From: a virus
DNA: 64,000 nt
Virus record (IMG/VR): IMGVR_UViG_3300042991_000159
Span: 35,796-99,795 of that record
Direction: 5' to 3' (one strand)
Made by a program: the position numbers and the translations under genes. Shown here one piece after another: positions 2,859-60,212 of the stretch. Below the pieces are notes generated by a model. It was given only the letters and a program-made list of their open reading frames with translations. It was not told where the DNA came from and made no database searches. Position 1 is the first letter of the stretch, and the number at the start of each line of letters is the position of its first letter.

Positions 2859-4724
2859 CTATTGAATTTTACCCGGATTGCCCGACAAACCTTCGTAATT
2901 ATTAAATCTTGTATCAACTGCTCCTGCTACCATTTCTTGATACTGTTCAAGACTAATAGGTTGTCTTGTTCTAGTATTGTGGTCAATAAGAATTATCTGT
3001 TTCTTATTTCCGTTAATTATACTTCCTTCTCCCTCCACATAAACTTGTTGACCAGTTGGTTCCCCTTTATAATCAAGAATATCAACAGGTCTCATTTCAC
3101 CCGGAGCAATACTTGTTGGGTTATAGTAAGATTCAGTTACGAATTGTGCTGACTCTAACATATCTTGTGTTTGAACGTCAGGTGAAAAATTAATAGTTAC
3201 TGGTTTGGCTCCTTTTTTTCCTTCTTTAGCGGGTATAGTCATAGATATTGTTCCTTCTGTAACATTAATGCGAGTATCAAGTTTCTTATCTGCCATAGCT
3301 TCTTCCAAATCCTGATAAGTATTGTAACCTAATTGATCGGCAACACCTTTTTTACCAAATACATCTCCCGTAGTTTCTATTCCTTGAACAGTAAAATCAC
3401 CAGAATTAATATTGCTAAACGCTTGAATCTTCAGATTAGAAGAAGAATCTTCTAATCTTGTATTCCAAGTAAGTCTTGCAGATTCGGATGCGTTCTGAAG
3501 ATAATTTTCATATGCTTTAAATGCTTCATCACGTGTAAGATTCTTTAATTCAGGATATTCTGAACCAAGAACATTATAATAATCGTTCAAATACTTCTCT
3601 CTTACACCAAGAGCACGTTGTCTTTCATTTTCTCTCTGCTGCGCTGTCATATTGTCATAGAAAACAGGGGTACTTCCAAGAGGTCCACCTGCTGTAGGAG
3701 CACCTGTACCTCCTGCTCCCGGTTCTCTTAGCATAGCTTTATGTTTTTCTAATCTACCATTAGCTTCAGTTGAAAGTACCGGTTGATAGTTAGCTGAACC
3801 AAAATAAGGATTGACAACTTCCCCCTCCAGACTCTTTTTAAAGTCTGCAATCTGATAAGGATTAACCTCAAGACTCATATCTTGTTGACGGAATACAGAA
3901 GGAGCAATATTACCAAGAAGGGTTTGTCTCGTAGCTTCAGCTAACGTATCTCCTTTAAGTCCAAATTTCTCTTTCTGAGTTGGATCAAGACTACTAAAAC
4001 CTTCAACAAATTCAGGATGTGATTGTTGGAAAGCTAATTGAATAGCGGGGTCTTTCGCCATCTCTTCAATTTTCGTACGAGTAACCTGAGTTACCTTAGT
4101 ACCTGTAATGAATCCTTCAAATTCTTCAGGACTAATATTATATCTTTTATATTGATCCGGAGTAAGAGAAGAGAAAATATCTCTTGCTGTCTTTCCCCAA
4201 TCTCCTTGTTCAACCACTCTACCTGTAAACTGATCAACTCCACGTACCTGTCCTTGTTCATCCATTGTAGTAAGTTGCCTTGGGTCTTGACCAAATATCA
4301 TAGCTTTTGGACCAAACTTAGTAACTTGTTCTTCAAATGCTTGTCTTTTTTTCTCAACCTCTTTTTGAGCATTCCAAAACGGATTAGCTCTAAGTTCACT
4401 CACTTGTCTCGCTACAGTTTTAGCTGCTCTTCCCCAATCACCACCGAATTGTTCTTCAACAGTCTTATCAATATTACTCATAGAATCATTAATAATTTGA
4501 TTCTTTGAAGCAATATCTGCCATACCTACTTGTTGTTGAGCCATAGCATCTTTATCCGCAAGTGCTCCTGCAAACGCTGTATCATAACCAGCTTGTCTTC
4601 CTCTTAGTTGTTCCTGAAGAAAGTCAATAGGTATAGGATTAAAAAACGATTGATAGTCTCCTATCATTGGTTGATTCGAGTATTGACTCGAATATCTTTG
4701 TTGCGGTGGATATTTAGTCGCCAT
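2859..4724 (-). CDS. Putative ejected cargo protein (621 aa)
   Basis: Long ORF between the cargo-1-like genes and the giant cargo gene; N-terminal YQSFFNPIPIDFL...QAGYD motif resembles crAss-like cargo proteins. Confidence 0.65.
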   Translation of the reverse strand: MATKYPPQQRYSSQYSNQPMIGDYQSFFNPIPIDFLQEQLRGRQAGYDTAFAGALADKDAMAQQQVGMADIASKNQIINDSMSNIDKTVEEQFGGDWGRAAKTVARQVSELRANPFWNAQKEVEKKRQAFEEQVTKFGPKAMIFGQDPRQLTTMDEQGQVRGVDQFTGRVVEQGDWGKTARDIFSSLTPDQYKRYNISPEEFEGFITGTKVTQVTRTKIEEMAKDPAIQLAFQQSHPEFVEGFSSLDPTQKEKFGLKGDTLAEATRQTLLGNIAPSVFRQQDMSLEVNPYQIADFKKSLEGEVVNPYFGSANYQPVLSTEANGRLEKHKAMLREPGAGGTGAPTAGGPLGSTPVFYDNMTAQQRENERQRALGVREKYLNDYYNVLGSEYPELKNLTRDEAFKAYENYLQNASESARLTWNTRLEDSSSNLKIQAFSNINSGDFTVQGIETTGDVFGKKGVADQLGYNTYQDLEEAMADKKLDTRINVTEGTISMTIPAKEGKKGAKPVTINFSPDVQTQDMLESAQFVTESYYNPTSIAPGEMRPVDILDYKGEPTGQQVYVEGEGSIINGNKKQIILIDHNTRTRQPISLEQYQEMVAGAVDTRFNNYEGLSGNPGKIQ

Positions 4725-5804: not shown

Positions 5805-7295
5805 TTAATCGAATTTAAGTCGGTTACTAAATACGTATCCGTTCCATGTAACTTCCCCTTTCTCAGTCATTCCTACTGCTGAAGTCCTTGACATTTTTGC
5901 AGGATTACCTTTTGCGTCAACAGGGATACCACCTACACCTTCTTGGTGAGTATTACCATTTGAATATTCTGTTATCTGAGGTTGCTGATTCATGAATCCC
6001 ATTCCTATTTGTCCACCATCTTCATGTTGTATTAAACCATTTTGAGAATAATACTTTGCTAATTCGAGATCAGTAGTTATTCCTGTTTTATTTTTAATAG
6101 CATATTCTCTAGCTTCATCATTATTCATATGTATTAAACTATCTCCTTGTTGTACAATTTCAGGAAAAATCATTGCTGTACTATCTGACAACGGATGATA
6201 ACTAAGACCGTGTGAACTTGTTTTTCCACTACCGGGATTGTAAGGGTCTGGAATATTTAACTTATTACCTTCAAGATATCTTTTAATCCAAGGGTTATTT
6301 TTGTTAGCAATAGTAAGACTATCAGCTCTACTTTTTAAATCTCCACCATTCTCAAACGTAGCACCGTAGTTAACTTGTTTAGTATCAAGTACATTACCAA
6401 GTCTTGTCTTTCTGTTTGCAAGTCTTTCTTGTTCTGCTTGTGATGCAGCTAATTCATCTGCTTGTTGTTGCATCATATCTTCTTGAGAGTTCTTCTGTTG
6501 AATCCCGGAAATTGCACTACCAGCAGTACTTAGAATTGGTCCAGCTATTTGTCCAATTGCCGGTATCATACTTACCAGAGAACCTGCTCCTTTAAGTAAT
6601 CCAGCACCGTTTTCTTTTAACCAACTACCAAACCCATACTGCATAAGACCCCCACCATATCCATGCTTTGCAAAACTTTTTTCCATTTCAATTAACCTGT
6701 TATAATAATCAGGACCCTGATTCTTGAAATGATCTGTTGCAATTTTTCTTGCTATCTTAGTTGATTCAGCTTTATTTTTAACATTTCCGGTATGTTCATG
6801 TTCTATTTTAATACCTTTTTTCATGAAGTCCTTAGAAGGAGAACCTTTATAAGTCTGACCTTTAGGTTTTTTCAGGTCTTCTCCTATCTTAGCAAGCTTC
6901 TTATAATATGTAGGACCAGCTTCTTCGAAATGATCCTTGGCAACTTGTTTTGCTATTTTAAGATTACCAGAATGTTCTTTTTCAACTCGTACACCTGCAC
7001 TCATAGCACCAGCAGGAATCTTTCCCCCATAAGCTCTAAGCTGTAATGCTGGTTTACCGTCAACAACAGGTCCAGCTACAAGTGTACCTCCATTAGCATA
7101 CAGCATTCCACCAAGCTCGTGATTCCACTTTCTAGCATTAATAGCAAACTGTTTTTTCTTACGTATAGCAGGAGAGTCTCCTGATTTGATACTCAGCTTA
7201 CTAGCTGGTATTTTTTGCCCTTCTGAAACTCCAAGATGTTTGCGAAGCGATCCTCGTTTTGAAGGCTTGATATAAATTTTTGGTTTAGTGGACAT
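5805..7295 (-). CDS. Cargo protein 1-like, N-terminal half; modular (basic N-domain, two DUF5661-like repeats, hydrophobic segment, GNTHQEGVGG...YVFSNRL domain)
   Basis: The ORF track starts at 7322 (GTG); ATG at 7295 (MSTKPK) is more likely. Directly downstream of the muzzle gene, as in crAss-like phages. Confidence 0.7.
   Translation of the reverse strand: MSTKPKIYIKPSKRGSLRKHLGVSEGQKIPASKLSIKSGDSPAIRKKKQFAINARKWNHELGGMLYANGGTLVAGPVVDGKPALQLRAYGGKIPAGAMSAGVRVEKEHSGNLKIAKQVAKDHFEEAGPTYYKKLAKIGEDLKKPKGQTYKGSPSKDFMKKGIKIEHEHTGNVKNKAESTKIARKIATDHFKNQGPDYYNRLIEMEKSFAKHGYGGGLMQYGFGSWLKENGAGLLKGAGSLVSMIPAIGQIAGPILSTAGSAISGIQQKNSQEDMMQQQADELAASQAEQERLANRKTRLGNVLDTKQVNYGATFENGGDLKSRADSLTIANKNNPWIKRYLEGNKLNIPDPYNPGSGKTSSHGLSYHPLSDSTAMIFPEIVQQGDSLIHMNNDEAREYAIKNKTGITTDLELAKYYSQNGLIQHEDGGQIGMGFMNQQPQITEYSNGNTHQEGVGGIPVDAKGNPAKMSRTSAVGMTEKGEVTWNGYVFSNRLKFD
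6690..6995 (-). repeat. Tandem duplicated DUF5661-like domain inside the cargo gene
   Basis: GVRVEKEHSGNLKIAKQVAKDHFEEAGPTYYKKL and GIKIEHEHTGNV...IARKIATDHFKNQGPDYYNRL share G-x-x-[VI]-E-x-E-H...A-x-D-H-F...G-P-x-Y-Y-x-x-L. Confidence 0.75.
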
Positions 7296-35616: not shown

Positions 35617-38031
35617 TTACTTACTTTTTGAGACTGTTTTTGGTTGCATAGCTTTCTTCTTATCAATCACTTCAGTTGCCTTATTATGACGAATAGTTTC
35701 AAGTATGTCCTTATTCTTCAGTTCATAATCCTTTCGAATTTTTTCACGATCTAATTTAAGTTTCTCAATAGCAAGAATTCTTTCTTCTATACCATTACCT
35801 TCTTGCCCATCGTCTTTACCCGCAATAGCAAGTTTAGTCTGGGCTTCAAGCATTTTTTCTTCCCATCTTTGTTGACGTTCGGCTTCCTTATCAGCCATTT
35901 GAGCTTGAATCTGTTGTTGTTGAGCTTCAAGATTTGCTTGTTGTTGTTCAGCTATAAGTTTTTCAGCATTTTCTTCATACTTCTCAATCTTTCTTCTCAT
36001 AGAACTCATAGAATCAGATAAGTATATATCCATTAGAGCAGAGAAATTAAGCTTGTCATTTTGCAGACCAGCTTGAGCAAGACTCTTCATAGCCGCCATC
36101 AGTTCAGCATCTTGAGTAGAGTTACTAATCATAATACCGTAATCAGCATCGTTGAATAGTTGTCCATCAATCTCTGTAATAACCGAACTCATTTCATCGG
36201 AAATGTATTGCAGTTTCTCATGATTCTTATTTCTCCAAGCATACTTTGCAGTCTCAAGAAGAGTTTCAAGAACTCTCTTCTTAGTATTATCGTGCATCAT
36301 AAACCATTTCTCTGTAATATGAGAAGACTGAGTTACAGCACGTTCAACACCACCAACAGTCTCACGATTTTCTATCTGACCCTGACGTTGCTGATTTACA
36401 CCGGCAATTTCACCAAGTTCACGCTTAATAAATTCAAGCATCATAACGTGTTGCTGGATATAACTACCCATCTCAAGATCAAGTACTTTAGTATTCTGGT
36501 TCATTTGACCAGCAAGTTTTCCTTGTGCTACCCCTTTATTACCTTCTTTAAACGGGTCTTCAATCGCCCATCCAAGAATCTCAGCATAGTACATCCACTT
36601 GTCCATATCCCAACCTTCCGGAATACGAGATGTATCCATTACAGAAATCTTACCTTTACTCTTTGCAAAGGCAAGTTCTGTTCTATACATAAATACATTA
36701 TATAGGTATTGATAAGGCTTCATCCTATCCATTAAAGAACGAGCCTGAGACGTATTAGTATTATAAATGGTTCCTACATAACCTGATCCACCAATAGATT
36801 TATTACCCATACTACGGAATTGGATTGGTCTTGGACCCCACTTAACATAAATATCTTCTGCGATACGAGTACCTTCCCACCACTCATTAATCCAGAACCA
36901 TTCAATTTTTTCTCCAAGAGCTTCATTAACAGGATAGTTCTCGTCAACAAGTTCCTTTTGAATTTCTCCGTCTTCATCATACCAACTCTTTTCTCCCACC
37001 TTTCTCATACTTACCCACACAACTTTTAGAACACGAACTTCTCCGTTATCACTATATGCTGCAACGTTTCTTGTATTATAGTTGTTGAGATCAATAAGAC
37101 TATACTCCCATTCACCGTTTTCATTCTGAGAAGCATTGGTTGCAGAAATAGGATTTTGAACTGGTCTTCTGGGATAATACTTAACAATATCCTTACTACT
37201 ACCTCCACTGGAAATATATCCTCTTTCGATTTTATCAATTTCAGCAGGAGTAAGATGATCATAATAATTATCAATAACCCATCTAATAGGTTGATAAGTA
37301 TCTTCAATTATAACATCTGCATCTTCAACTAAGTAACTCGGTCCAGTACGAAGAACTGTGAGAGTCATGGGATCAACTTTTCGTACAACCGGTTCACCAC
37401 CAACAATATCTACATTATATACTTCCATTCCACCAACAAGAGCATCTTCAAATCCTCTGTTGAACTTAATTTTTAAGTCTTGTTCTTTCCATAAATAAGT
37501 AAGATATTGCGTAGCTCTTCTCTCTCTAAGGTCTTGAGCTTCATACTTGCTCCACTTTTCGAGTTTCTGAATTTCTTCAGCAAGTTTTTCCTCACTATAG
37601 TTTTCATCTTCAACTGCTTTCATTAGCAGTTGTTTCATCAAATTCTTTTGCTTCTCTTCTTTCTGAGAAACTGCATCCGGATTTACTACCATTACTCTCC
37701 AATCAAAACGTCTTTTTGATTCCTCACCAATAAGAAGGTCAATTTTAGGATTAGCAATAGGATAGTTCTGCATCTTAGCAGGGAAGGACGCATTTTTTAT
37801 TCCCCAAGGATTAACTGCTTGTTCAATATCTCTCTCGTCAAGAATATCATTACGCAAATTGTAATTGACCATCATGTCTTTTTTAGTCCTCATAAGAAGA
37901 CTATCTCTGTTGTATGATACATCAATAGCTGACTCCATACAATCAATTACAAACTGCTTATTCTTTTTAGCAGTTGATTTCTTTTGGTACGGGAAATGTG
38001 CTGTCGTTTTAATTATTTGTCCTGTAGCCAT
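35617..38031 (-). CDS. Portal protein
   Basis: 804 aa; NYPIANPKIDLLIGEE, WINEWWEGTRI, SLMDRMKPYQYLYN and AGVNQQRQGQI motifs; follows TerL. Confidence 0.92.
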   Translation of the reverse strand: MATGQIIKTTAHFPYQKKSTAKKNKQFVIDCMESAIDVSYNRDSLLMRTKKDMMVNYNLRNDILDERDIEQAVNPWGIKNASFPAKMQNYPIANPKIDLLIGEESKRRFDWRVMVVNPDAVSQKEEKQKNLMKQLLMKAVEDENYSEEKLAEEIQKLEKWSKYEAQDLRERRATQYLTYLWKEQDLKIKFNRGFEDALVGGMEVYNVDIVGGEPVVRKVDPMTLTVLRTGPSYLVEDADVIIEDTYQPIRWVIDNYYDHLTPAEIDKIERGYISSGGSSKDIVKYYPRRPVQNPISATNASQNENGEWEYSLIDLNNYNTRNVAAYSDNGEVRVLKVVWVSMRKVGEKSWYDEDGEIQKELVDENYPVNEALGEKIEWFWINEWWEGTRIAEDIYVKWGPRPIQFRSMGNKSIGGSGYVGTIYNTNTSQARSLMDRMKPYQYLYNVFMYRTELAFAKSKGKISVMDTSRIPEGWDMDKWMYYAEILGWAIEDPFKEGNKGVAQGKLAGQMNQNTKVLDLEMGSYIQQHVMMLEFIKRELGEIAGVNQQRQGQIENRETVGGVERAVTQSSHITEKWFMMHDNTKKRVLETLLETAKYAWRNKNHEKLQYISDEMSSVITEIDGQLFNDADYGIMISNSTQDAELMAAMKSLAQAGLQNDKLNFSALMDIYLSDSMSSMRRKIEKYEENAEKLIAEQQQANLEAQQQQIQAQMADKEAERQQRWEEKMLEAQTKLAIAGKDDGQEGNGIEERILAIEKLKLDREKIRKDYELKNKDILETIRHNKATEVIDKKKAMQPKTVSKSK

Positions 38032-52500: not shown

Positions 52501-52755
52501 ATGTTACGAAACATTTCTGTATCGGAGTTCAAGCGGATCGAAGGAGTCGATACCGTTCAGATCGTTAGAAATCCTAATACAACCAAGCTCTTTGCTTCGG
52601 TTGGTAATGGAAAGAATTACCGTGTGGAGGCTGCTATTGATACAGCCAAGCCGGTTGAGTTCTTGTACGACGATGATGCTACCTTGGAAACAGGTGGCAT
52701 TGAGAACGGTTGCTTCATCAATCAGCGTGCTAACAACGTTGTTGCTACCCTGTAG
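52501..52755 (+). CDS. First gene of the early arm (84 aa)
   Basis: ISVSEFKRIEG...IVRNPNTTKLFAS; richer in C-ending codons than its neighbours; has its own terminator. Confidence 0.8.
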   Translation: MLRNISVSEFKRIEGVDTVQIVRNPNTTKLFASVGNGKNYRVEAAIDTAKPVEFLYDDDATLETGGIENGCFINQRANNVVATL

Positions 52756-52764
52756 GACACCAAT

Positions 52765-52806
52765 ACGTCTCTGCATCTGCTATTAACGCAGGTGTAGAGG
52801 CGTTTT
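52765..52806 (+). terminator. Intrinsic terminator
   Basis: ACGTCTCTGCATCTGC-loop-GCAGGTGTAGAGGCGT followed by TTT. Confidence 0.8.
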
Positions 52807-52997
52807 ATTGAAGGACTGTTGATGATCATAGTTGATTAGTTTAGAACGTATTAAGTGTTTGACGTTGAAGAAGATGAGAGTTGGTTGGACTTCAATAACC
52901 CACCAATATCATACTCATCACCTATAATCCAACCATGTTATCTCATATTAATATAGCTTAAATAACACATAAACATCAATTATAATCTAAATACATT

Positions 52998-53132
52998 ATA
53001 AAGATAAGAAGACGCTCTCTTACCAGCAGAGCGTATAGTTCTCCGTAAAGTTGTATCACTCAATGATTGTTAGTAATCTGATACATAAAACTAGAGTAAT
53101 AGCTGTTTTAAGAAATATCTTCTTATCTTTAT
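52998..53132 (+). ncRNA. Candidate structured RNA element 1
   Basis: 15-bp perfect closing stem enclosing nested hairpins. Confidence 0.5.
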
Positions 53133-53161
53133 TCTTTTGTAACTAACTAACTTATAATATT

Positions 53162-53398
53162 ATGAACAAAGACAGACTTACATTCAGAAGTGGATTGAAC
53201 TACATATTAAATGTATTTCTTGTAGTACTTACTGTTTATCTATTTGTGCAATTTAGTAATCAAATCAAATCACAAAGATATGAAAACTCTATTAAGAATC
53301 CGGAGAATCAACCGTTTGTTCTTGAATGTGCTTTTAATCTTGGTATTCCTATTGATAGTGTAACTCAGGAACAATTTAATGAGCGTTATTTAAAATAA
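53162..53398 (+). CDS. Small single-TM protein
   Basis: 78 aa with hydrophobic YILNVFLVVLTVYLFV. Confidence 0.65.
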   Translation: MNKDRLTFRSGLNYILNVFLVVLTVYLFVQFSNQIKSQRYENSIKNPENQPFVLECAFNLGIPIDSVTQEQFNERYLK

Positions 53399-53432
53399 TT
53401 ATTATCTTTATACAAACTAAATACTTTATGCT

Positions 53433-53588
53433 ATGTCAACATCATGGAGATCGAAAGCAAAGAAATTTTCTCACAGGATAAAGGATGATACAATCTTCCT
53501 CAATCCTCAGAACAACAGGAAACGTATACGTGGAAGGAACGTGCAAGTTGATCCTAAAACAGGTCGTAAAATAGTTCATACATCATGA
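53433..53588 (+). CDS. Small basic protein (51 aa, not in track)
   Basis: MSTSWRSKAKKFSHRIKDDTIFLNPQNNRKRIRGRNVQVDPKTGRKIVHTS*; ATGA overlap with the next ORF. Confidence 0.6.
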   Translation: MSTSWRSKAKKFSHRIKDDTIFLNPQNNRKRIRGRNVQVDPKTGRKIVHTS

Positions 53589-53764
53589 GACGATCAAAAA
53601 CTCACTTCAAGAACACGGAAGCCGATATTAAGGTTTCACGAGCCAACGATGGACAATTACCTGCTAAACGTCAGGCTATTCACGATATGAAAGAATCTGG
53701 AATACCATTTCCATCTATCATTAATTGTGAAAGTTTGATTAGGTCTTATTGCCAATTAAACTAA
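53585..53764 (+). CDS. Small protein (59 aa, not in track)
   Basis: MRRSKTHFKNTEADIKVSRANDGQLPAKRQAIHDMKESGIPFPSIINCESLIRSYCQLN*; translationally coupled. Confidence 0.55.
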   Translation: MRRSKTHFKNTEADIKVSRANDGQLPAKRQAIHDMKESGIPFPSIINCESLIRSYCQLN

Positions 53765-53778
53765 ATATACTTTACGTT

Positions 53779-54060
53779 ATGAACACTAGAACAATCTCCC
53801 ATAAAAGGGACATGGAAAAAATTACTATTTTTGTTATTCACATTGTAACTGTTATTCTTCTTGCATGGTGGATTGATTCAAAGATTGATCATGTTGCATT
53901 TAGAGAGAGTGAGATGATACAATGGTATTATGATGCTCATTTTTTTGCAAGACTTGGAGTATCTACAATATATATATTTGTGGTAACTGCATTTGTATTC
54001 TTGTGGAGAACAATCATTAAATATCTTGTTAGCTCAATCTTTTATAAGATATATAGGTAA
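53779..54060 (+). CDS. Two-TM membrane protein
   Basis: Two hydrophobic helices; TAATG overlap with the beta-barrel gene. Confidence 0.6.
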   Translation: MNTRTISHKRDMEKITIFVIHIVTVILLAWWIDSKIDHVAFRESEMIQWYYDAHFFARLGVSTIYIFVVTAFVFLWRTIIKYLVSSIFYKIYR

Positions 54061-54569
54061 TGAGAAAACAAGTAATAGTACTTTTAGGAATTTTAGTTGG
54101 CATAGTTCTGTCTGTTAATGGACAGGACTATCGCCAGCTACGTGAGACACCTCACGATGCTATCTACTTAGCCTATCAACCTTGGGATCATGGCTTAGGT
54201 ATAAGATATGATCATCATATCAACTATTGGGCTGGACTATATGGTTCAGCATCTTATGGTAGATTAGGATTGTATAAATATTCTGGATTAGGACAACACG
54301 TAAAATTAACTACTGGTGTTCTTATTCCATTTAAGGATTGGAGAGGTAATCAACATGATTTTACTCTTGGTTTAAACTATCATTGGGTATCTGGTGTAGT
54401 AGAAACTAATGAAACATTTAAAGATAATCCTATATTCCATGAGCCATTCTCATTCGAAATTGGTTTAACAATTAAAATGGAACGCTTTGCTCTTGGTATG
54501 AGAACTGATATATTACGTTGGGAACCATGTATTGATATTGGTATTCCGATAAGAAGAAATTCCCATTAG
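54060..54569 (+). CDS. Small outer-membrane beta-barrel protein
   Basis: Signal peptide MRKQVIVLLGILVGIVLSVNG|Q; about eight alternating amphipathic strands (YLAYQ, GLGIRYD, GLYGSASYG, KLTTGVLI, DFTLGLNY, SFEIGLTI, FALGMRTD, CIDIGIP). Confidence 0.65.
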   Translation: MRKQVIVLLGILVGIVLSVNGQDYRQLRETPHDAIYLAYQPWDHGLGIRYDHHINYWAGLYGSASYGRLGLYKYSGLGQHVKLTTGVLIPFKDWRGNQHDFTLGLNYHWVSGVVETNETFKDNPIFHEPFSFEIGLTIKMERFALGMRTDILRWEPCIDIGIPIRRNSH

Positions 54570-54571
54570 TT

Positions 54572-54915
54572 TAGCTTGTCCGATGAGGGCAATAAAACAA
54601 CCGGACCTAAGAAATCTGGTAGAACCTGAGAAAAGAATAAACAGGATGGGTGTAAAAGAGTCACAAGCAAGATACTTAATCATAAATGCCTTCTGCCGGT
54701 AGTGCAGTGACAATCCATTAACGATACAATATGCTCGTATTGATGAACGTGTACAGCGTAATGTAATTGGAATAAACGATTCCTTATAAAGATGTGGTAG
54801 AAAGAAGATGACTCGCTCTAACTGACAAACACGGAGTATATGCAAAAATGACAACACTTTCGATTCAGCTCCGAGGTGAAAAAAGCTCTAACATATCTTG
54901 GAGTCGTCTTCTTTC
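54572..54915 (+). ncRNA. Candidate large structured RNA (includes element 2)
   Basis: 380-nt gap without a plus-strand ORF, holding at least five hairpins and a 15-bp long-range stem (54800-54814 with 54901-54915). Confidence 0.5.
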
Positions 54916-54950
54916 AATTTTAATTGCGTTTTTAAACTAAACATTTACAA

Positions 54951-55391
54951 ATGAATAATAAATCTAAAACGTTGCCAGTAGAACCTGAGAGGTTAGAGGT
55001 AATCAAAGCTCAAGTCGTTGATGAATTTTATGCAAAGGCTTTACGAAAAGAAGAACTTGAATTTAGTAGTGGTCAAGTTGTTGAAATTATCCATGAAATT
55101 TCTATTACTAAAGAAGAGTGTAAGAACATTACTATGTTGGAAACTGAGCATATCATGACCAACAAAAAGCATATTGAGAACATCTTTCATGCTGTTATTG
55201 ATCGTGCTCACAAAGAAATAGGAGATTTTCATGATTGTAAAAAATGTCCTTTAGAATATCTTTGTGAACCCTCTCAATTTGATAGTATGGAAGAGTTTGT
55301 GAAAGGTCTTGGTTTATCCAAAGAACGTGAAGCTGTTCTTATTCAGATGTTAATGTCTCAACTAAAACATGATCTAAGAAACATGAATTAA
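54951..55391 (+). CDS. Hypothetical protein with CxxCxxxxxC motif
   Basis: 146 aa; DCKKCPLEYLC. Confidence 0.65.
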   Translation: MNNKSKTLPVEPERLEVIKAQVVDEFYAKALRKEELEFSSGQVVEIIHEISITKEECKNITMLETEHIMTNKKHIENIFHAVIDRAHKEIGDFHDCKKCPLEYLCEPSQFDSMEEFVKGLGLSKEREAVLIQMLMSQLKHDLRNMN

Positions 55392-55413
55392 AACATAATT
55401 AAATAGAAATAAA

Positions 55414-55722
55414 ATGTTAAAAACTATATTTGTTACTTATTTTAGCGATAGAACTAATATTGCTAATGATTGTAAAATCAAAAGATATGCATTCAACACT
55501 GAATCTGATGTAAAAATTGGTGATGAGTTGAAATCAAAGTCATATTCCAGTTCAATGAGTGTTGTAGAAATATTGGATAAAGCGTACACCTATTATAATA
55601 ATATTAATGGGGATTTGTCCAATGAAATTACATCCACTTCTATGAGAAAGATTAAGGTGTTGGAAATAAGAGAAGAGGAAGACAACATTGTATACGCCAC
55701 CAAAGTTGAAGAAACTAAATAG
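55414..55722 (+). CDS. Hypothetical protein
   Basis: 102 aa; KRYAFNTESDVKIGDELKS. Confidence 0.65.
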   Translation: MLKTIFVTYFSDRTNIANDCKIKRYAFNTESDVKIGDELKSKSYSSSMSVVEILDKAYTYYNNINGDLSNEITSTSMRKIKVLEIREEEDNIVYATKVEETK

Positions 55723-55732
55723 TTATGACGAT

Positions 55733-55860
55733 AAGATGAAGTCGCTATTAAAAACAGTTCATAAATATTTGGTGAGGGAAGGAGAAAGACCTTCTCTTTT
55801 TGGGAGAAAATGAGAACGCTCCCGTATATTAAATAGGTTATTCTCAATAGGTTTCATCTT
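55733..55860 (+). ncRNA. Candidate structured RNA element 3
   Basis: Closing stem AAGATGAAGTC(GC)TATT / AATAGGTTTCATCTT with two internal hairpins. Confidence 0.45.
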
Positions 55861-55893
55861 GGGGGTATATACAGAAATGTGTGTACCCTTTTT
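55861..55893 (+). terminator. Intrinsic terminator
   Basis: GGGTATATAC-AGAAAT-GTGTGTACCC followed by TTTTT. Confidence 0.75.
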
Positions 55894-55907
55894 ATAAATT
55901 TACTCAG

Positions 55908-56171
55908 ATGCAAAAAAAACAACATCAAAGTAAGAAACAAAATCGTAAACCAAAGCTTTTAGAATGTGTAAGAGTATCAGAGTTTGATATTGCTCGTAGA
56001 ATAGCATTACTTACAAATATCAGACAAGGATATGGGAAAGCTGTACAAGTTGGACTAGATATTAAATATACTGTAGGTACTGAGTTTCATGGTCTTGTTG
56101 AATATACTATTGTCAATGCGAAAATCCATGGATATGAAACGCAGAATATGGAAAATTTTGGAAGAATATGA
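55908..56171 (+). CDS. Hypothetical basic protein
   Basis: Likely ATG at 55908 (MQKKQHQ). Confidence 0.55.
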   Translation: MQKKQHQSKKQNRKPKLLECVRVSEFDIARRIALLTNIRQGYGKAVQVGLDIKYTVGTEFHGLVEYTIVNAKIHGYETQNMENFGRI

Positions 56172-56271
56172 TAAGAATCCTTGTGCTATTGTATTATTTA
56201 CAATATTCATTATGATATTAATTATAGGATTTGCATTATTAATGGCAGTTATAAAACTGTTATGGTTCTAA
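56089..56271 (+). CDS. Small single-TM protein (start uncertain)
   Basis: Hydrophobic AIVLFTIFIMILIIGFALLMAVI; TAATG overlap with the next gene. Confidence 0.45.
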   Translation: MVLLNILLSMRKSMDMKRRIWKILEEYDKNPCAIVLFTIFIMILIIGFALLMAVIKLLWF

Positions 56272-56933
56272 TGAATAATTTCAGTGAAAAAAACTACTCA
56301 GAGTTCTTCAAGGAAGACCTCTATGGTGGGTTCGTTGATTATTTGATTAACGAATACGGAGTCAAATATTGTTTGGCTGTTCTTCGGAACGATGATTTAA
56401 TTACCAAGAAGGGAATACATCCTGTATTTCAGAAAGACTTTAAAGTTTTTCTTTCCCTTAATCCTCTGATAAAGAAAGAGTTTGCAAGAAATCACAATCG
56501 TTTCATGCAACTCCGGAATATAGCAGATGAAAATCTTGCTTTTCCTATTGATACTGCTGATGAATCAGTAATGGTTCAACAAAAGATTAGAATACCGGAG
56601 TTTATTTCTGTTAAAGACGATATTATTCGTGCAACAAAGGAAATGAAACGTTCCGCAGCTCCTATGAAAGGACAAATTCTGAAAGGCGAATGGAAAGAAA
56701 AAAGGTATCATTTACCAAAACGCCTTACTATCCATCTCAAAAAGGGATTAGCTATGAGAATGAGAAAGACAACTCTCAATTTTATGGTTAATTCCAGACA
56801 AGAGGCAATCTCTATTATGATTGATCGTTTTACTGACAATGTTGCGTATGCTACAATCCAGAACGAAGAAGAGTTTGTATTTGTAAAACCGAGAAATGGA
56901 AAAATCAAAAGGAGTCGTAAACTTCGTGGTTAG
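56271..56933 (+). CDS. Hypothetical protein
   Basis: Likely ATG at 56271 (MNNFSEKNY), 220 aa. Confidence 0.65.
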   Translation: MNNFSEKNYSEFFKEDLYGGFVDYLINEYGVKYCLAVLRNDDLITKKGIHPVFQKDFKVFLSLNPLIKKEFARNHNRFMQLRNIADENLAFPIDTADESVMVQQKIRIPEFISVKDDIIRATKEMKRSAAPMKGQILKGEWKEKRYHLPKRLTIHLKKGLAMRMRKTTLNFMVNSRQEAISIMIDRFTDNVAYATIQNEEEFVFVKPRNGKIKRSRKLRG

Positions 56934-57219
56934 ATATAACAGTGATCCGGTAGCCGGTATCTCTGAAAACCACTGTTCTGATATATTATCTCTTACTGAC
57001 ACTGATGAAAGAGGTTTTGATACTCAGAATGAAGCTATATTATTTTTGTCTGAATGTACGAGTCCGATAACCTGTCTTGAAGAACTCGTTCCGGAATTAA
57101 AGAATTTAAAGTGTAGTAAAAACTTTAAGTTCTTGCTTCCCGAACGAAATATTAAACCGAAACATCAATTGATGGCTTCAATGGACTATGTGTTACACTC
57201 TACAAAGAGATGGGAATAG
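56896..57219 (+). CDS. Hypothetical protein
   Basis: 107 aa. Confidence 0.55.
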   Translation: MEKSKGVVNFVVRYNSDPVAGISENHCSDILSLTDTDERGFDTQNEAILFLSECTSPITCLEELVPELKNLKCSKNFKFLLPERNIKPKHQLMASMDYVLHSTKRWE

Positions 57220-57227
57220 TATAGTAT

Positions 57228-57358
57228 AGGAATATTGCTTGTTCAACTAACAATTAATTATTATTAATTATCTTTGGGTAGTCATTGGTAAACGTTCTTT
57301 ATTTGATTGTTACGAAAAATCCTATGATACAGATTTCAATAGAACGAGCAATATTCCT
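57228..57358 (+). promoter_or_regulatory. 17-bp inverted repeat enclosing a TATCTTTG promoter element upstream of tmRNA (element 4)
   Basis: AGGAATATTGCTTGTTC (57228-57244) and GAACGAGCAATATTCCT (57342-57358); TATCTTTG at 57269-57276. Confidence 0.6.
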
Positions 57359-57370
57359 TTTTTAAAATAT

Positions 57371-57691
57371 GGGCGTATAATTGGATTTGATTGCGTTGAT
57401 TGGTAAATGTGGCAACCAAGCTGGTGAGCTTTGTACACGCAAACATAAGTGGAGACAATAAAGTTGTACCCATGTACACAAACTACTACTCACGAGTAGC
57501 AGCTTAGTACGGACTTGTCAGAGAGTTGGCAACAGAACTCTGACACATTGTAAGTTTGTTCAAACTATAAATGAACTGGTGGAGCTGACAGATTCATTTC
57601 TGTCTCCTAGTGAATGACAGTAAACTGTCTATGGTTGTAAACTATATTTATGCGACAATGTAAGACGGGGGTTCGATCCCCCCTACGTCCA
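57371..57691 (+). ncRNA. ssrA: tmRNA (transfer-messenger RNA)
   Basis: Acceptor stem GGGCGUA/UACGUCC-A with the G3.U alanine determinant; 5' GGAUUUGA; T-arm GGGGGUUCGAUCCCCC; tag frame 57451-57507 after UAAGU encodes (A)GDNKVVPMYTNYYSRVAA-stop; 321 nt. Confidence 0.93.
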
Positions 57692-57720
57692 CAAATAGTA
57701 TTAACTAAATATAAAAATGT

Positions 57721-58316: not shown

Positions 58317-60212
58317 ATGGATGTTGAGAAAAAAATTTGGGTATATGATCTTGAACAATTAAGGAATTTTCATTCTGGAACCTTCATGGATCGTGATGAC
58401 CCAACTAATGTGAGAGTATTTGTTATCCATAAATCAAGAAATGATATGTTTGAGTACTACAAATTCCTTAAAGAAGAAGTAGCTGGACTCATTGGATTTA
58501 ATTGTATAAATTATGATTATCCGTTATTACATTTCTTTATGGCAATAATGACTATTGCAAATGAAAAAACTACAGCAGATGGATTTAATGAATTATTATC
58601 TGAAGAGTCCCAGAGAATTATAAATACGGAATATTCGGCTATACCTGAGAGAGATACAAGGATACCACAATTAGATTTATATCGAATACATCATTTCGAT
58701 AATAAGGCTAAGATGACGAGTTTAAAATATCTACAAATAAATATTAAATATCATAATGTACAGGATATTCCTTTTGATGAAGATCATTATATTACTGAGG
58801 AAGAGATACCAGAGATTCTTGCTTATAACTTTAATGATGTAGATTCAACCAGAGAGTTCTATTTTCTGAGTGTGGATATGATAGAATTAAGAAAGAAATT
58901 AAGTACAAAATATAGAATAAATTTACGTAATGCAAATGACCCTAAGATTGGTCAGGAGATATTTGGAAGGGAGATTGCGAGGAAATTAAATATAAATTAT
59001 AAAGTTCTCAGAGATATGAGAACATATCGGAGGTCAATAAATTTAAAGGATTGTGTACTTCCACAAATAAAATTCAAGAGCAAAGAGTTCAATAGAATTT
59101 TAGAATTTTTTAAACAGACTACAATAGTAACAACATATAAAGCATTTGAAGAGTCAGTAATATATAAGGGATTTAAGTATGATTACGGAACCGGAGGTTT
59201 ACACGGATGTATAGATTCAGGAGTATATGAATCTGATGAATATTATGAGATCATAGATATTGATGTAAGCTCATATTATCCCAATATAGCGATTCAAAAC
59301 AATTTCTATCCTCAACATTTGGGTGAATCTTTTGTTGAGGTATATCGAGAGATAATTGAGCTTAAGAACGAAGCAGGAAGAATAGGAGATAAAACAACTA
59401 AATCAGGTATGAAATTATCTGCTAATGGAGTTTATGGTAAAAGTAATGATCAATATTCGTTATTTTATGATCCAAAATATACTATGAGAGTAACTATCAA
59501 TGGTCAACTCATGTTATCTATGTTGGCTGAAAGTTTAGCATTGACGTTAGGAGAATTAGTTATTTTACAAGTAAATACTGATGGGATAACTATTAAAATA
59601 CCAAGAAATTATAGAGGTGTAGTAGATAGGATATGTAAAGAGTGGGAAGAGGAAACAGGATTAACGCTTGAGTATGCTCAATATAAGAAGATGGTTATTA
59701 GAGATGTAAACAACTATCTAGCTATTACTACTGATGATAAAGCAAAACCTAAAGGATGTTTCGAGATCATACCAATGCAGAATGGAGCTATCGCATATAA
59801 TAAAAACTGGTCCATGAGAGTTGTACCTAAAGCACTTCATGCGTATTATATAGATGGTATTAAACCAGAAGATTTTGTAGTAACACACGACGATATATAT
59901 GATTTTACTATCGGATTTAGAGCAAAAGGTAGTTGGGATGTATGGGCAACATTTATTGAAAATTGTAACAAAGTCAAGGTAAAACAACAAAAGACTCTTA
60001 GATATTTTATGTCTAAGACAGGTGCAGTTCTTACTAAAGAAAATCGTGATGATGGTAGAATAATATCTCTCGAAGCAAGTAGAACAACTACTATATTCAA
60101 TAAATATGTTGATTTATCAATGGAAGAATATAACATTGATTATGGATATTATTTGAGAGAAATTAATAAAATTATAAATGCTGTAGACGATGGACAACTT
60201 AAATTATTTTAA
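58317..60212 (+). CDS. polB: DNA polymerase, family B
   Basis: Exo I YDLE, Exo II GFNCINYD, Exo III YNFNDV; polymerase motifs DIDVSSYYPN, KLSANGVYG and NTDG. Confidence 0.93.
   Translation: MDVEKKIWVYDLEQLRNFHSGTFMDRDDPTNVRVFVIHKSRNDMFEYYKFLKEEVAGLIGFNCINYDYPLLHFFMAIMTIANEKTTADGFNELLSEESQRIINTEYSAIPERDTRIPQLDLYRIHHFDNKAKMTSLKYLQINIKYHNVQDIPFDEDHYITEEEIPEILAYNFNDVDSTREFYFLSVDMIELRKKLSTKYRINLRNANDPKIGQEIFGREIARKLNINYKVLRDMRTYRRSINLKDCVLPQIKFKSKEFNRILEFFKQTTIVTTYKAFEESVIYKGFKYDYGTGGLHGCIDSGVYESDEYYEIIDIDVSSYYPNIAIQNNFYPQHLGESFVEVYREIIELKNEAGRIGDKTTKSGMKLSANGVYGKSNDQYSLFYDPKYTMRVTINGQLMLSMLAESLALTLGELVILQVNTDGITIKIPRNYRGVVDRICKEWEEETGLTLEYAQYKKMVIRDVNNYLAITTDDKAKPKGCFEIIPMQNGAIAYNKNWSMRVVPKALHAYYIDGIKPEDFVVTHDDIYDFTIGFRAKGSWDVWATFIENCNKVKVKQQKTLRYFMSKTGAVLTKENRDDGRIISLEASRTTTIFNKYVDLSMEEYNIDYGYYLREINKIINAVDDGQLKLF

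Follow-up and report, generated by a model that had tools for sequence, protein, structure and literature searches.

crAss-like phages rank among the most abundant viruses, and their early host takeover is largely obscure. The closest described systems come from several phage groups. In phage T7, each early RNase III site is one irregular hairpin, ~50-60 nt long, that encloses no conserved domain; T4 carries rnaC (139 nt) and rnaD (119 nt) beside its tRNA genes. In mapped bacterial RNase III substrates, the duplex measures 10-36 bp and the cuts lie up to 505 nt apart (PMC11780869). T4-type phages also contain PeSL (promoter-early stem-loop) cassettes, in which a repeated, sequence-conserved sigma-70 promoter is joined to a short GC-rich terminator hairpin (PMC2839356). 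Finally, the crAss-like phage phi14:2 makes early RNAs from intergenic DNA that are plentiful and of unusual stability (bioRxiv 10.1101/2020.03.07.982082).

We analysed a 64,000-nt stretch (the window; positions 35,796 to 99,795 of IMG/VR record IMGVR_UViG_3300042991_000159) of the complete 99.8-kb genome of an uncultured crAss-like phage that encodes 24 tRNAs and one tmRNA. Four elements, el1-el4, lie in the window (Table 1). The initial annotation had given all four a closing stem of 15-17 bp, which is accurate for el1, el2 and el4, where the stems enclose 86-105 nt; the closing helix of el3 is interrupted. It had also placed each element between genes and 12-50 nt before the next one, with purine-rich 5' arms in three and mostly G.U-type mismatches, and was correct on each count: the gaps are 29 nt for el1 (to an ATG at 53162), 35 nt for el2, 47 nt for el3 and 12 nt for el4, which adjoins the tmRNA gene. 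el2 forms the 3' part of a 381-nt gap (54570-54950). el4 contains a long-range helix (P2, 57248-57256 / 57304-57312) nested within its closing helix P1, and the element is followed by U6.

Table 1 Stem-closed elements and adjoining features; positions are those of the window.
Feature	Coordinates	Strand	Description
el1	52998..53132	+	135-nt module; perfect 15-bp helix, 52998-53012 / 53118-53132; fold z -3.8
el2	54800..54915	+	116-nt module; 15-bp helix with one G.U, 54800-54814 / 54901-54915; fold z -3.8
el3	55732..55860	+	~129-nt module; interrupted closing helix of 8 + 5 pairs with bulges (AAGAUGAA/UUCAUCUU plus CUAUU/AAUAG); fold z -1.1
Intrinsic terminator	55862..55895	+	directly behind el3; GGGUAUAUACA...UGUGUGUACCC stem followed by UUUUU; read from sequence
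el4	57228..57358	+	131-nt module; P1 of 17 bp with one G.U, 57228-57244 / 57342-57358; fold z -5.3
Phage tmRNA gene	57371..57692	+	Rfam RF00023, 72 bits

We counted stems with 15 or more pairs, no more than one G.U and a loop of 60-220 nt. The region 52800-57400 contains three, compared with a mean of 0.01 in 200 dinucleotide-preserving shuffles; two shuffles held one such stem and none held three. Equally long stems in shuffled controls had been named at the outset as part of the outcome that would speak against the elements; the shuffles rarely gave even one. Genome-wide, there are five non-coding long-range stems, those of el1, el2 and el4 and of two further stem-closed modules in the tRNA array, one in the tRNA-Gly/tRNA-Tyr gap and one in the tRNA-Asn/tRNA-Met gap. 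Relatives too carry stem-closed modules of this class, and in an independent complete genome three of six stems fall in the 6% of its DNA that is non-coding. Pairwise alignment against shuffles detected no sequence similarity among el1-el4, and each occurs once in the genome. Thus, the "family" first proposed is one of architecture and not of sequence, and paralogy of the four elements was rejected. MITEs were rejected, since there are no repeated copies and no target-site duplications in the flanks and the orthologues are syntenic.

Orthologues of el2, el3 and el4 are present at syntenic sites in related metagenomic phages (2-4 sequences per element), where no orthologue of el1 was found. Across 16 pairs of el4 P1 compared between the window and the related sequences L001 and L083, eight are invariant, one has changed on one side and seven on both sides, with none broken. 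The fourth el4 orthologue, L009, has a wholly different stem of 15 pairs, three of them G.U. In el2, two A-U pairs are swapped for G-C in the orthologue (L001:3297-3410), and the interior blocks are conserved. el3 is 70% identical to L083:21-145, with its outermost pair changed from A-U to G-C, its inner hairpin swapped for a different one, and the terminator behind it kept with a different stem sequence. Identity to L001 reaches 77% for el4 and 73% for el2; for comparison, the tmRNA is at 72% and the flanking genes are at 68-74%. The nested helices and blocks of the el4 interior are conserved among its orthologues. Leader peptides in the 5' arms were rejected, since the small ORFs differ between orthologues.

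The + strand is favoured. Within bona fide helices, the L009 stem included, + strand wobbles comprise seven G.U and no A.C, and all four el4 versions fold better on the + strand, by 5.7-9.9 kcal/mol. For el1 and both versions of el2 (window and L001), the - strand folds slightly better, so their strand is called from gene direction and a single G.U.

These patterns bear on whether the repeats act in DNA, as invertons (invertible promoter segments), as cruciforms, or as signals for replication or recombination. In size, inverted repeats of 15-17 bp flanking ~100 bp are similar to Bacteroidota invertons, and el4 contains a single TAnnTTTG box. However, the arms diverge by compensatory change with G.T wobbles on the + strand only, the repeats differ from element to element, and two modules are placed between tRNA genes. 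The el4 interior also points the same way in each of the four orthologues, and the complete genome lacks a serine or tyrosine recombinase, with no Resolvase or Phage_integrase domain. We therefore consider a DNA-level role very improbable.

Known RNA families do not account for the elements. With Rfam 15 at the gathering score, the tmRNA is the sole match in the window, and at E up to 5 nothing overlaps el1-el4; self-cleavage is unlikely, as no ribozyme family matched at this level. Rfam searches of six related loci (orthologues and related modules) and of the tRNA-array modules returned nothing matching these RNAs at either gathering or permissive thresholds, and a DNA search of a phage collection gave no match. 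A retron msr-msd was rejected, since there is no adjacent reverse transcriptase and the genome has no RVT_1 domain anywhere. Exact-pattern scans of IMG/VR with the el2 and el4 cores matched one contig that was already known, protein-anchored searches from the 146-aa and 220-aa neighbours yielded no additional genomes, and DNA searches of three related records with the tRNA-array modules were empty. A two-sequence covariance model of el4 picked up L009 only marginally and missed L083. Together, the compensatory changes, + strand G.U pairs, conservation and lack of an Rfam match support el2, el3 and el4 as probable undescribed structured RNAs under RNA-level selection; the initial annotation had proposed this for el1 as well, which lies outside the comparative data.

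We examined the setting of the modules among the stable RNA genes. The tmRNA gene occupies the same place in relatives, and its 5' end is adjoined by el4 or by a second module in the window, L083 and L009; in other relatives it lies directly 3' of an ORF. No Pfam match to SmpB was found beside it. T4 rnaC and rnaD are of the same size class and share the orientation and the location in tRNA/tmRNA clusters, a location from which tRNA processing would release the modules. Three of the present modules, however, sit between protein genes rather than tRNAs. The T4 RNAs have no sequence similarity to the elements and both lack a long terminal helix, and rnaC carries a tRNA-like T-arm. Hence location and size alone are held in common, and we do not assign the elements to the rnaC/rnaD type.

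Each of the four el4 versions has a U-tract behind P1, as do most other modules, and these tracts could equally mean termination. The modules might thus be terminator or attenuator cassettes, possibly with a PeSL-like internal promoter, in which P1 and the U-tract would stop or damp read-through and internally started transcripts lacking the 5' arm would run on. The classical terminator at el3 fits such a role, as does a relative's module (L008:5022-5135) that has an internal terminator hairpin and a 3' arm covering the next start codon. However, where a tmRNA or tRNA gene adjoins a module, it begins 5-16 nt past the closing helix; a promoter would not fit into that space, so transcription has to pass through the module. 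The tmRNA directly follows an ORF in the other relatives noted above. A helix closing a ~100-nt loop is also a poor intrinsic terminator. Nor is an internal promoter motif conserved: the el4 box is missing from its three orthologues, where the spacing of conserved blocks differs by 4-11 nt. PeSL cassettes, which are regulatory, are likewise small and occupy the intergenic spaces of accessory early genes in a plastic part of the genome. In contrast, the elements here are unrelated in sequence, form long-range helices and have no repeated conserved unit or conserved promoter, and we do not class them as PeSLs. Overall, a terminator or attenuator function appears unlikely.

A second possibility is that the elements punctuate the early polycistron in cis only, as in T7, with P1 providing RNase III-type cleavage or stability sites and the interior being a tolerated loop that yields no trans-acting RNA. 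Like the T7 early sites and long-range bacterial duplexes, the elements are intercistronic in an early operon, each ending 12-47 nt before the next gene, and form a helix from sequences flanking a segment. An RNase III site needs a helix of at least ~10 bp in one transcript between cistrons, and the 15-17 bp covariation-supported intergenic helices have this form; the anatomy read from the sequence is thus compatible with RNase III-type processing. Helices of 11-17 bp around ~100 nt fit the mapped bacterial substrates (PMC11780869), and the sequence of P1 drifts freely while its pairing persists. The phage genome encodes no RNase III, so such punctuation would depend on the host enzyme. Unlike the T7 sites, the present elements, where RNase III cleavage is putative, enclose a conserved multi-helix interior of ~100 nt. 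These interiors are conserved like the neighbouring genes, with nested helices and blocks that would be needless in a mere loop, and the inter-tRNA modules require no extra cleavage signal. Punctuation alone is therefore conceivable, though doubtful. An excised decoy RNA against host defence, another role put forward in the initial annotation, is neither favoured nor disfavoured by these data, and no observation specifically favours its third suggestion, antitermination for the virion RNAP.

The explanation we prefer, at a probability of about 0.5, is that each element is a non-coding RNA module that folds on its own within a polycistronic transcript, is delimited by P1 and is released by host processing as a small stable RNA. 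The modules would be transcribed from the + strand within the early, tRNA and tmRNA polycistronic transcripts, and in each of them the long terminal helix P1 (11-17 bp) would pair the 5' and 3' ends, shielding the module fold from the adjacent message. Cuts would then come from host endonucleases: RNase P acting on the neighbouring tmRNA or tRNA, 3' tRNA processing, or RNase III within P1. Specifically, an RNase P cut at the tmRNA 5' end would free the 3' side of el4, and because some modules lie between tRNAs, maturation of the flanking tRNAs must release these. The product would be an RNA of ~115-135 nt whose paired ends would withstand exonucleases. The weak closing helix of el3 counts against this reading, as do the U-tracts behind most P1 helices and the slightly better - strand folds of el1 and el2.

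The conserved interiors differ from one another, which suggests that their partners differ too and are probably host proteins or RNAs that the phage handles as it takes over the cell; antisense or target complementarity within the genome was nothing above chance. A bolder extension, which we hold only tentatively and regard as rather unlikely, is that at least six unrelated stable RNA effectors share one terminal-helix cassette, are freed by host tRNA/rRNA processing enzymes, and each act in trans on a different host component. Such effectors might, for example, be sponges or mimics for RNA-binding proteins, ribosome-rescue factors or defence sensors.

A parallel within the same viral order is offered by the g004-g006 gaps of Cellulophaga phage phi14:2, which are long ORF-free early-arm gaps behind an outer-membrane-protein gene, transcribed rightward. 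They measure ~0.7 kb each, whereas the elements here span ~115-135 nt. One phi14:2 gap contains a 121-nt stretch closed by an 11-bp stem, with a fold z of -1.6 that is no better than shuffles. Homology of the elements to the phi14:2 early RNAs was not supported, as no sequence similarity was found.

phi14:2 provides the one available transcriptome, and its abundant stable early non-coding RNAs are still unexplained. The present analysis adds RNA modules that are delimited exactly and backed by covariation; they come from a related lineage, lie amid tRNA/tmRNA genes and can go directly into Northern, end-mapping, RNase III and pull-down assays. If such trans-acting effectors exist, they would mirror, at the RNA level, the small accessory early proteins that phages make, and could account for the abundant stable early RNAs of phi14:2. 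Should several unrelated RNAs prove to share one cassette for packaging and release, its terminal helix could also be used to search metagenomes for hidden phage RNA genes.

Three of the four intergenic elements in the early arm are closed by helices far longer than chance would provide. The initial annotation had described 15-17 bp closing stems in all four; this held for el1, el2 and el4 (15, 15 and 17 pairs, enclosing 105, 86 and 97 nt) but not for el3, whose stem is interrupted (8+5 pairs). A shuffled control of the kind proposed there came out in favor of the stems: in 200 dinucleotide-preserving shuffles of 52800-57400, helices of at least 15 pairs (≤1 G.U, loop 60-220) occurred on average 0.01 times per shuffle, and three were never reached. 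Fold energies are likewise better than those of shuffles for el1, el2 and el4 (z -3.8, -3.8 and -5.3), but not for el3 (z -1.1). Genome-wide, 18 long-range stems score at least 11, and the five in non-coding DNA (9% of the genome) are el1, el2, el4 and two modules in the tRNA array; they enclose 86-138 nt, versus 91-214 nt for stems within coding sequence. The intergenic placement and distances to the next gene were borne out, and the four share an architecture; since they are mutually dissimilar in sequence, "family" can refer to architecture only.

Coordinates of the modules and associated features (L166, tRNA-array part of the same genome, outside the window; other L handles, loci from related metagenomic phages)
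Feature	Location	Strand	Remarks
el1	window 52998-53132	+	
el2	window 54800-54915	+	
el3	window 55732-55860	+	
el4	window 57228-57358	+	
el4 orthologues	L001:6404-6543; L083:1456-1620; L009:1397-1541		
el2 orthologue	L001:3297-3410		
tmRNA gene	window 57371-57692	+	
tmRNA in the clade	L001:6988-7308; L083:1638-1965; L009:1663-2026; gaps of L010, L006, L011		
Short tRNA-like genes	L003:3125-3215; L004:686-804; L091:6080-6300		in tmRNA slot
24 tRNA genes	genome 12774-22339	same as tmRNA	small ORFs interspersed
tRNA-array module	genome 17114-17273 (L166:5115-5274)		11-bp helix; between tRNA-Gly and tRNA-Tyr
tRNA-array module	genome 19711-19827 (L166:7712-7828)		perfect 12-bp helix; between tRNA-Asn and tRNA-Met
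Unrelated modules of relatives	L001:2600-2703, 3419-3545; L009:1554-1650; L012:3808-3920; L008:5022-5135, 7100-7243		in gaps between early ORFs
(U)AACUAAA sites	window 53141-53150, 53414-53421, 53757-53765, 54933-54941, 57701-57709		upstream of + strand starts
(U)AACUAAA sites	tRNA array		after tRNA-Leu, -Cys, -Ser, -Gln

The earlier proposal that G.U-compatible mismatches reflect selection on RNA gained support. Read on the + strand, genuine closing helices, counted over the window and related sequences, contain seven G.U juxtapositions (one each in el2 and el4, two in L008, three in L009), one U.U and no A.C. A G.U-tolerant scan of twelve non-redundant sequences found 15 long stems in the + orientation versus 4 in the - orientation, and for all four versions of el4 the + strand RNA has the better fold, by 5.7-9.9 kcal/mol. 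Neither el1 nor el2 shows this advantage, so their strand assignment rests on gene direction. The genome encodes no serine or tyrosine recombinase, no reverse transcriptase and no RNase III; the el4 interior has an identical orientation in all four genomes, and each element occurs once, with no target-site duplication. Taken together, these observations argue for selection at the RNA level and against invertons, retrons and MITEs, and a reading as DNA-level repeats is disfavored.

Related contigs were collected from IMG/VR and JGI metagenomes through DNA-polymerase-anchored searches, and they keep the gene order 220-aa ORF, 105-aa ORF, gap, 169-aa ORF, polymerase. Among the 16 outer pairs of the el4 closing helix in the window, L001 and L083, eight are invariant, seven have changed on both sides, one has changed on one side through G.U and none is broken; the L009 orthologue is closed by an entirely different helix of 15 pairs, three of them G.U. 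The el4 orthologues share interior blocks, including the AAUUAAUUAUUAUU tract and AACGUUCUU, and a second, nested long-range helix is retained between the window and L001. In el2, the L001 helix shows two A-U to G-C swaps and GAUU/AAUC in place of GACUC/GAGUC, and the interior blocks are again conserved. El3 is 70% identical to L083:21-145, with an outer A-U pair replaced by G-C and one inner hairpin swapped for a different one; the terminator behind it is retained with a different stem sequence. No orthologue of el1 was found among the related contigs. Covariation thus covers 2-4 sequences per element, and the support for el1 is statistical; the 220-aa neighbor points to ~30 homologous contigs beyond this set. 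Identity to L001 is 77% for el4 and 73% for el2, versus 68-74% for the flanking genes and polymerase and 72% for the tmRNA, so that, by sequence comparison, the elements are conserved to the same degree as neighboring genes. The 230 nt 5′ of el2 (54570-54799) are likewise ORF-free and structured-looking; in L001, el2 instead lies directly behind an ORF, and a further stem-closed module (L001:3419-3545) comes after it. On the 22-kb L001 contig (IMGVR_UViG_3300033153_003176), the 220-aa protein has a homologue that NCBI labels as a Candidatus Heimdallarchaeaceae MAG protein; a phage contig was probably misbinned into an archaeal MAG.

The two tRNA-array modules have the same build and no match in Rfam. 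Behind the 3′ arm of these two and of el4 come U4-6 and a short A/U spacer, after which a tRNA or the tmRNA begins; the intervening 5-16 nt are too short for a promoter, which means that the module has to be transcribed by read-through. This placement and the lack of a conserved internal promoter contradict terminator or promoter cassettes, which would otherwise accommodate the U-tracts, the terminator of el3 and one relative's module (L008:5022-5135) whose 3′ arm lies over a start codon. Within its closing helix, this L008 module carries a GC-rich terminator hairpin of the classical kind and a U-tract; since its 3′ arm extends over the AACUAAAC motif and the following ORF's ATG, translation starts there would be hidden in read-through transcripts. 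The relatives' modules folded against shuffles gave z of -2.9 to -6.8, and the related genome G002, which is complete, has six long-range stems, of which three fall in non-coding DNA (6% of the genome), all in the + arm.

Across the clade, tmRNA occupies the same site just 5′ of the conserved 169-aa ORF and DNA polymerase, and its tag peptides vary between lineages; the 169-aa product matches nothing in Pfam and cannot be recognized as SmpB. Three relatives instead carry short tRNA-like genes with an acceptor stem and T-arm, G3.U70 in two of the three and little or no tag region; only that of L004 matches the Rfam tmRNA model, weakly (E 1e-5). L003:2982-3121 and L091:~6095-6262 contain one GC-richer stem-closed module, without a match in Rfam, with the conserved core GAUACAGUYAGGCA...CGCUGCCUUAU.AACCGAGAUAGGACUGAAUGG. 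In L003 this module precedes the tRNA-like gene, whereas in L091 it sits within that gene, just 5′ of the T-arm, and has a different closing helix; the arrangement suggests a portable or intervening-sequence-like unit.

The record is a single virus of 99,795 bp, rated 100% complete (the window covers bases 35796-99795), whose major capsid protein shares 37-40% identity with its counterparts in the crAss-like phages cr111_1, DAC15 and Cellulophaga phage phi14:2. Portal, terminase and tail-fibre genes (PHROGs) occupy the - strand up to ~52,300; from ~52,500 on, + strand small ORFs precede DNA polymerase (58317-60212) and helicases. No Shine-Dalgarno sequences precede the ORFs, which fits a Bacteroidota host, as in other Crassvirales. 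Start codons on the + strand are repeatedly preceded, at 10-20 nt, by the (U)AACUAAA motif, in many cases immediately behind a tRNA, the tmRNA or a module; the phage may use it as a signal for translation initiation or processing. About 190 nt upstream of el1, a strong + strand 16-pair hairpin and T-tract (52765-52803) follow a possible 84-aa + strand ORF (52501-52755), so the rightward arm may start before el1. A 169-aa early protein (54060-54569) has a signal-peptide-like N-terminus and a beta-strand-rich sequence and matched no family; in phi14:2, an OmpA-like outer-membrane protein gene likewise lies immediately ahead of long non-coding early gaps.

Judged from sequence, the modules are most likely autonomous RNA folds within polycistronic transcripts. 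The terminal helix, common to all, would shut each fold off from the adjoining message and could plausibly be cut by host RNase III, given that the mapped bacterial sites are 10-36 bp duplexes whose cuts lie up to 505 nt apart (PMC11780869). In the tRNA array, 3′ maturation of the upstream tRNA would free the 5′ side. RNase P cleaves at the 5′ end of tRNA and tmRNA, and since transcription reads through, release of the module's 3′ side would have to follow. Whether cut at the helix or at a neighboring tRNA or tmRNA, the transcript would yield an RNA whose ends are paired, as is usual for stable RNAs. A role purely in processing or stability, without action in trans, would explain the module positions, but not the conserved interiors or the modules already bracketed by tRNAs. 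For autonomous folds, interiors that are conserved yet mutually unrelated imply a separate partner per module. In phi14:2, transcript levels of the two long early intergenic regions exceed those of most genes from the first time point and, unlike early mRNA levels, do not fall later (bioRxiv 10.1101/2020.03.07.982082). We found no sequence similarity between these regions and the modules, and the likeness is a weak architectural echo only; the phi14:2 RNAs nevertheless provide an experimental precedent within the same virus order.
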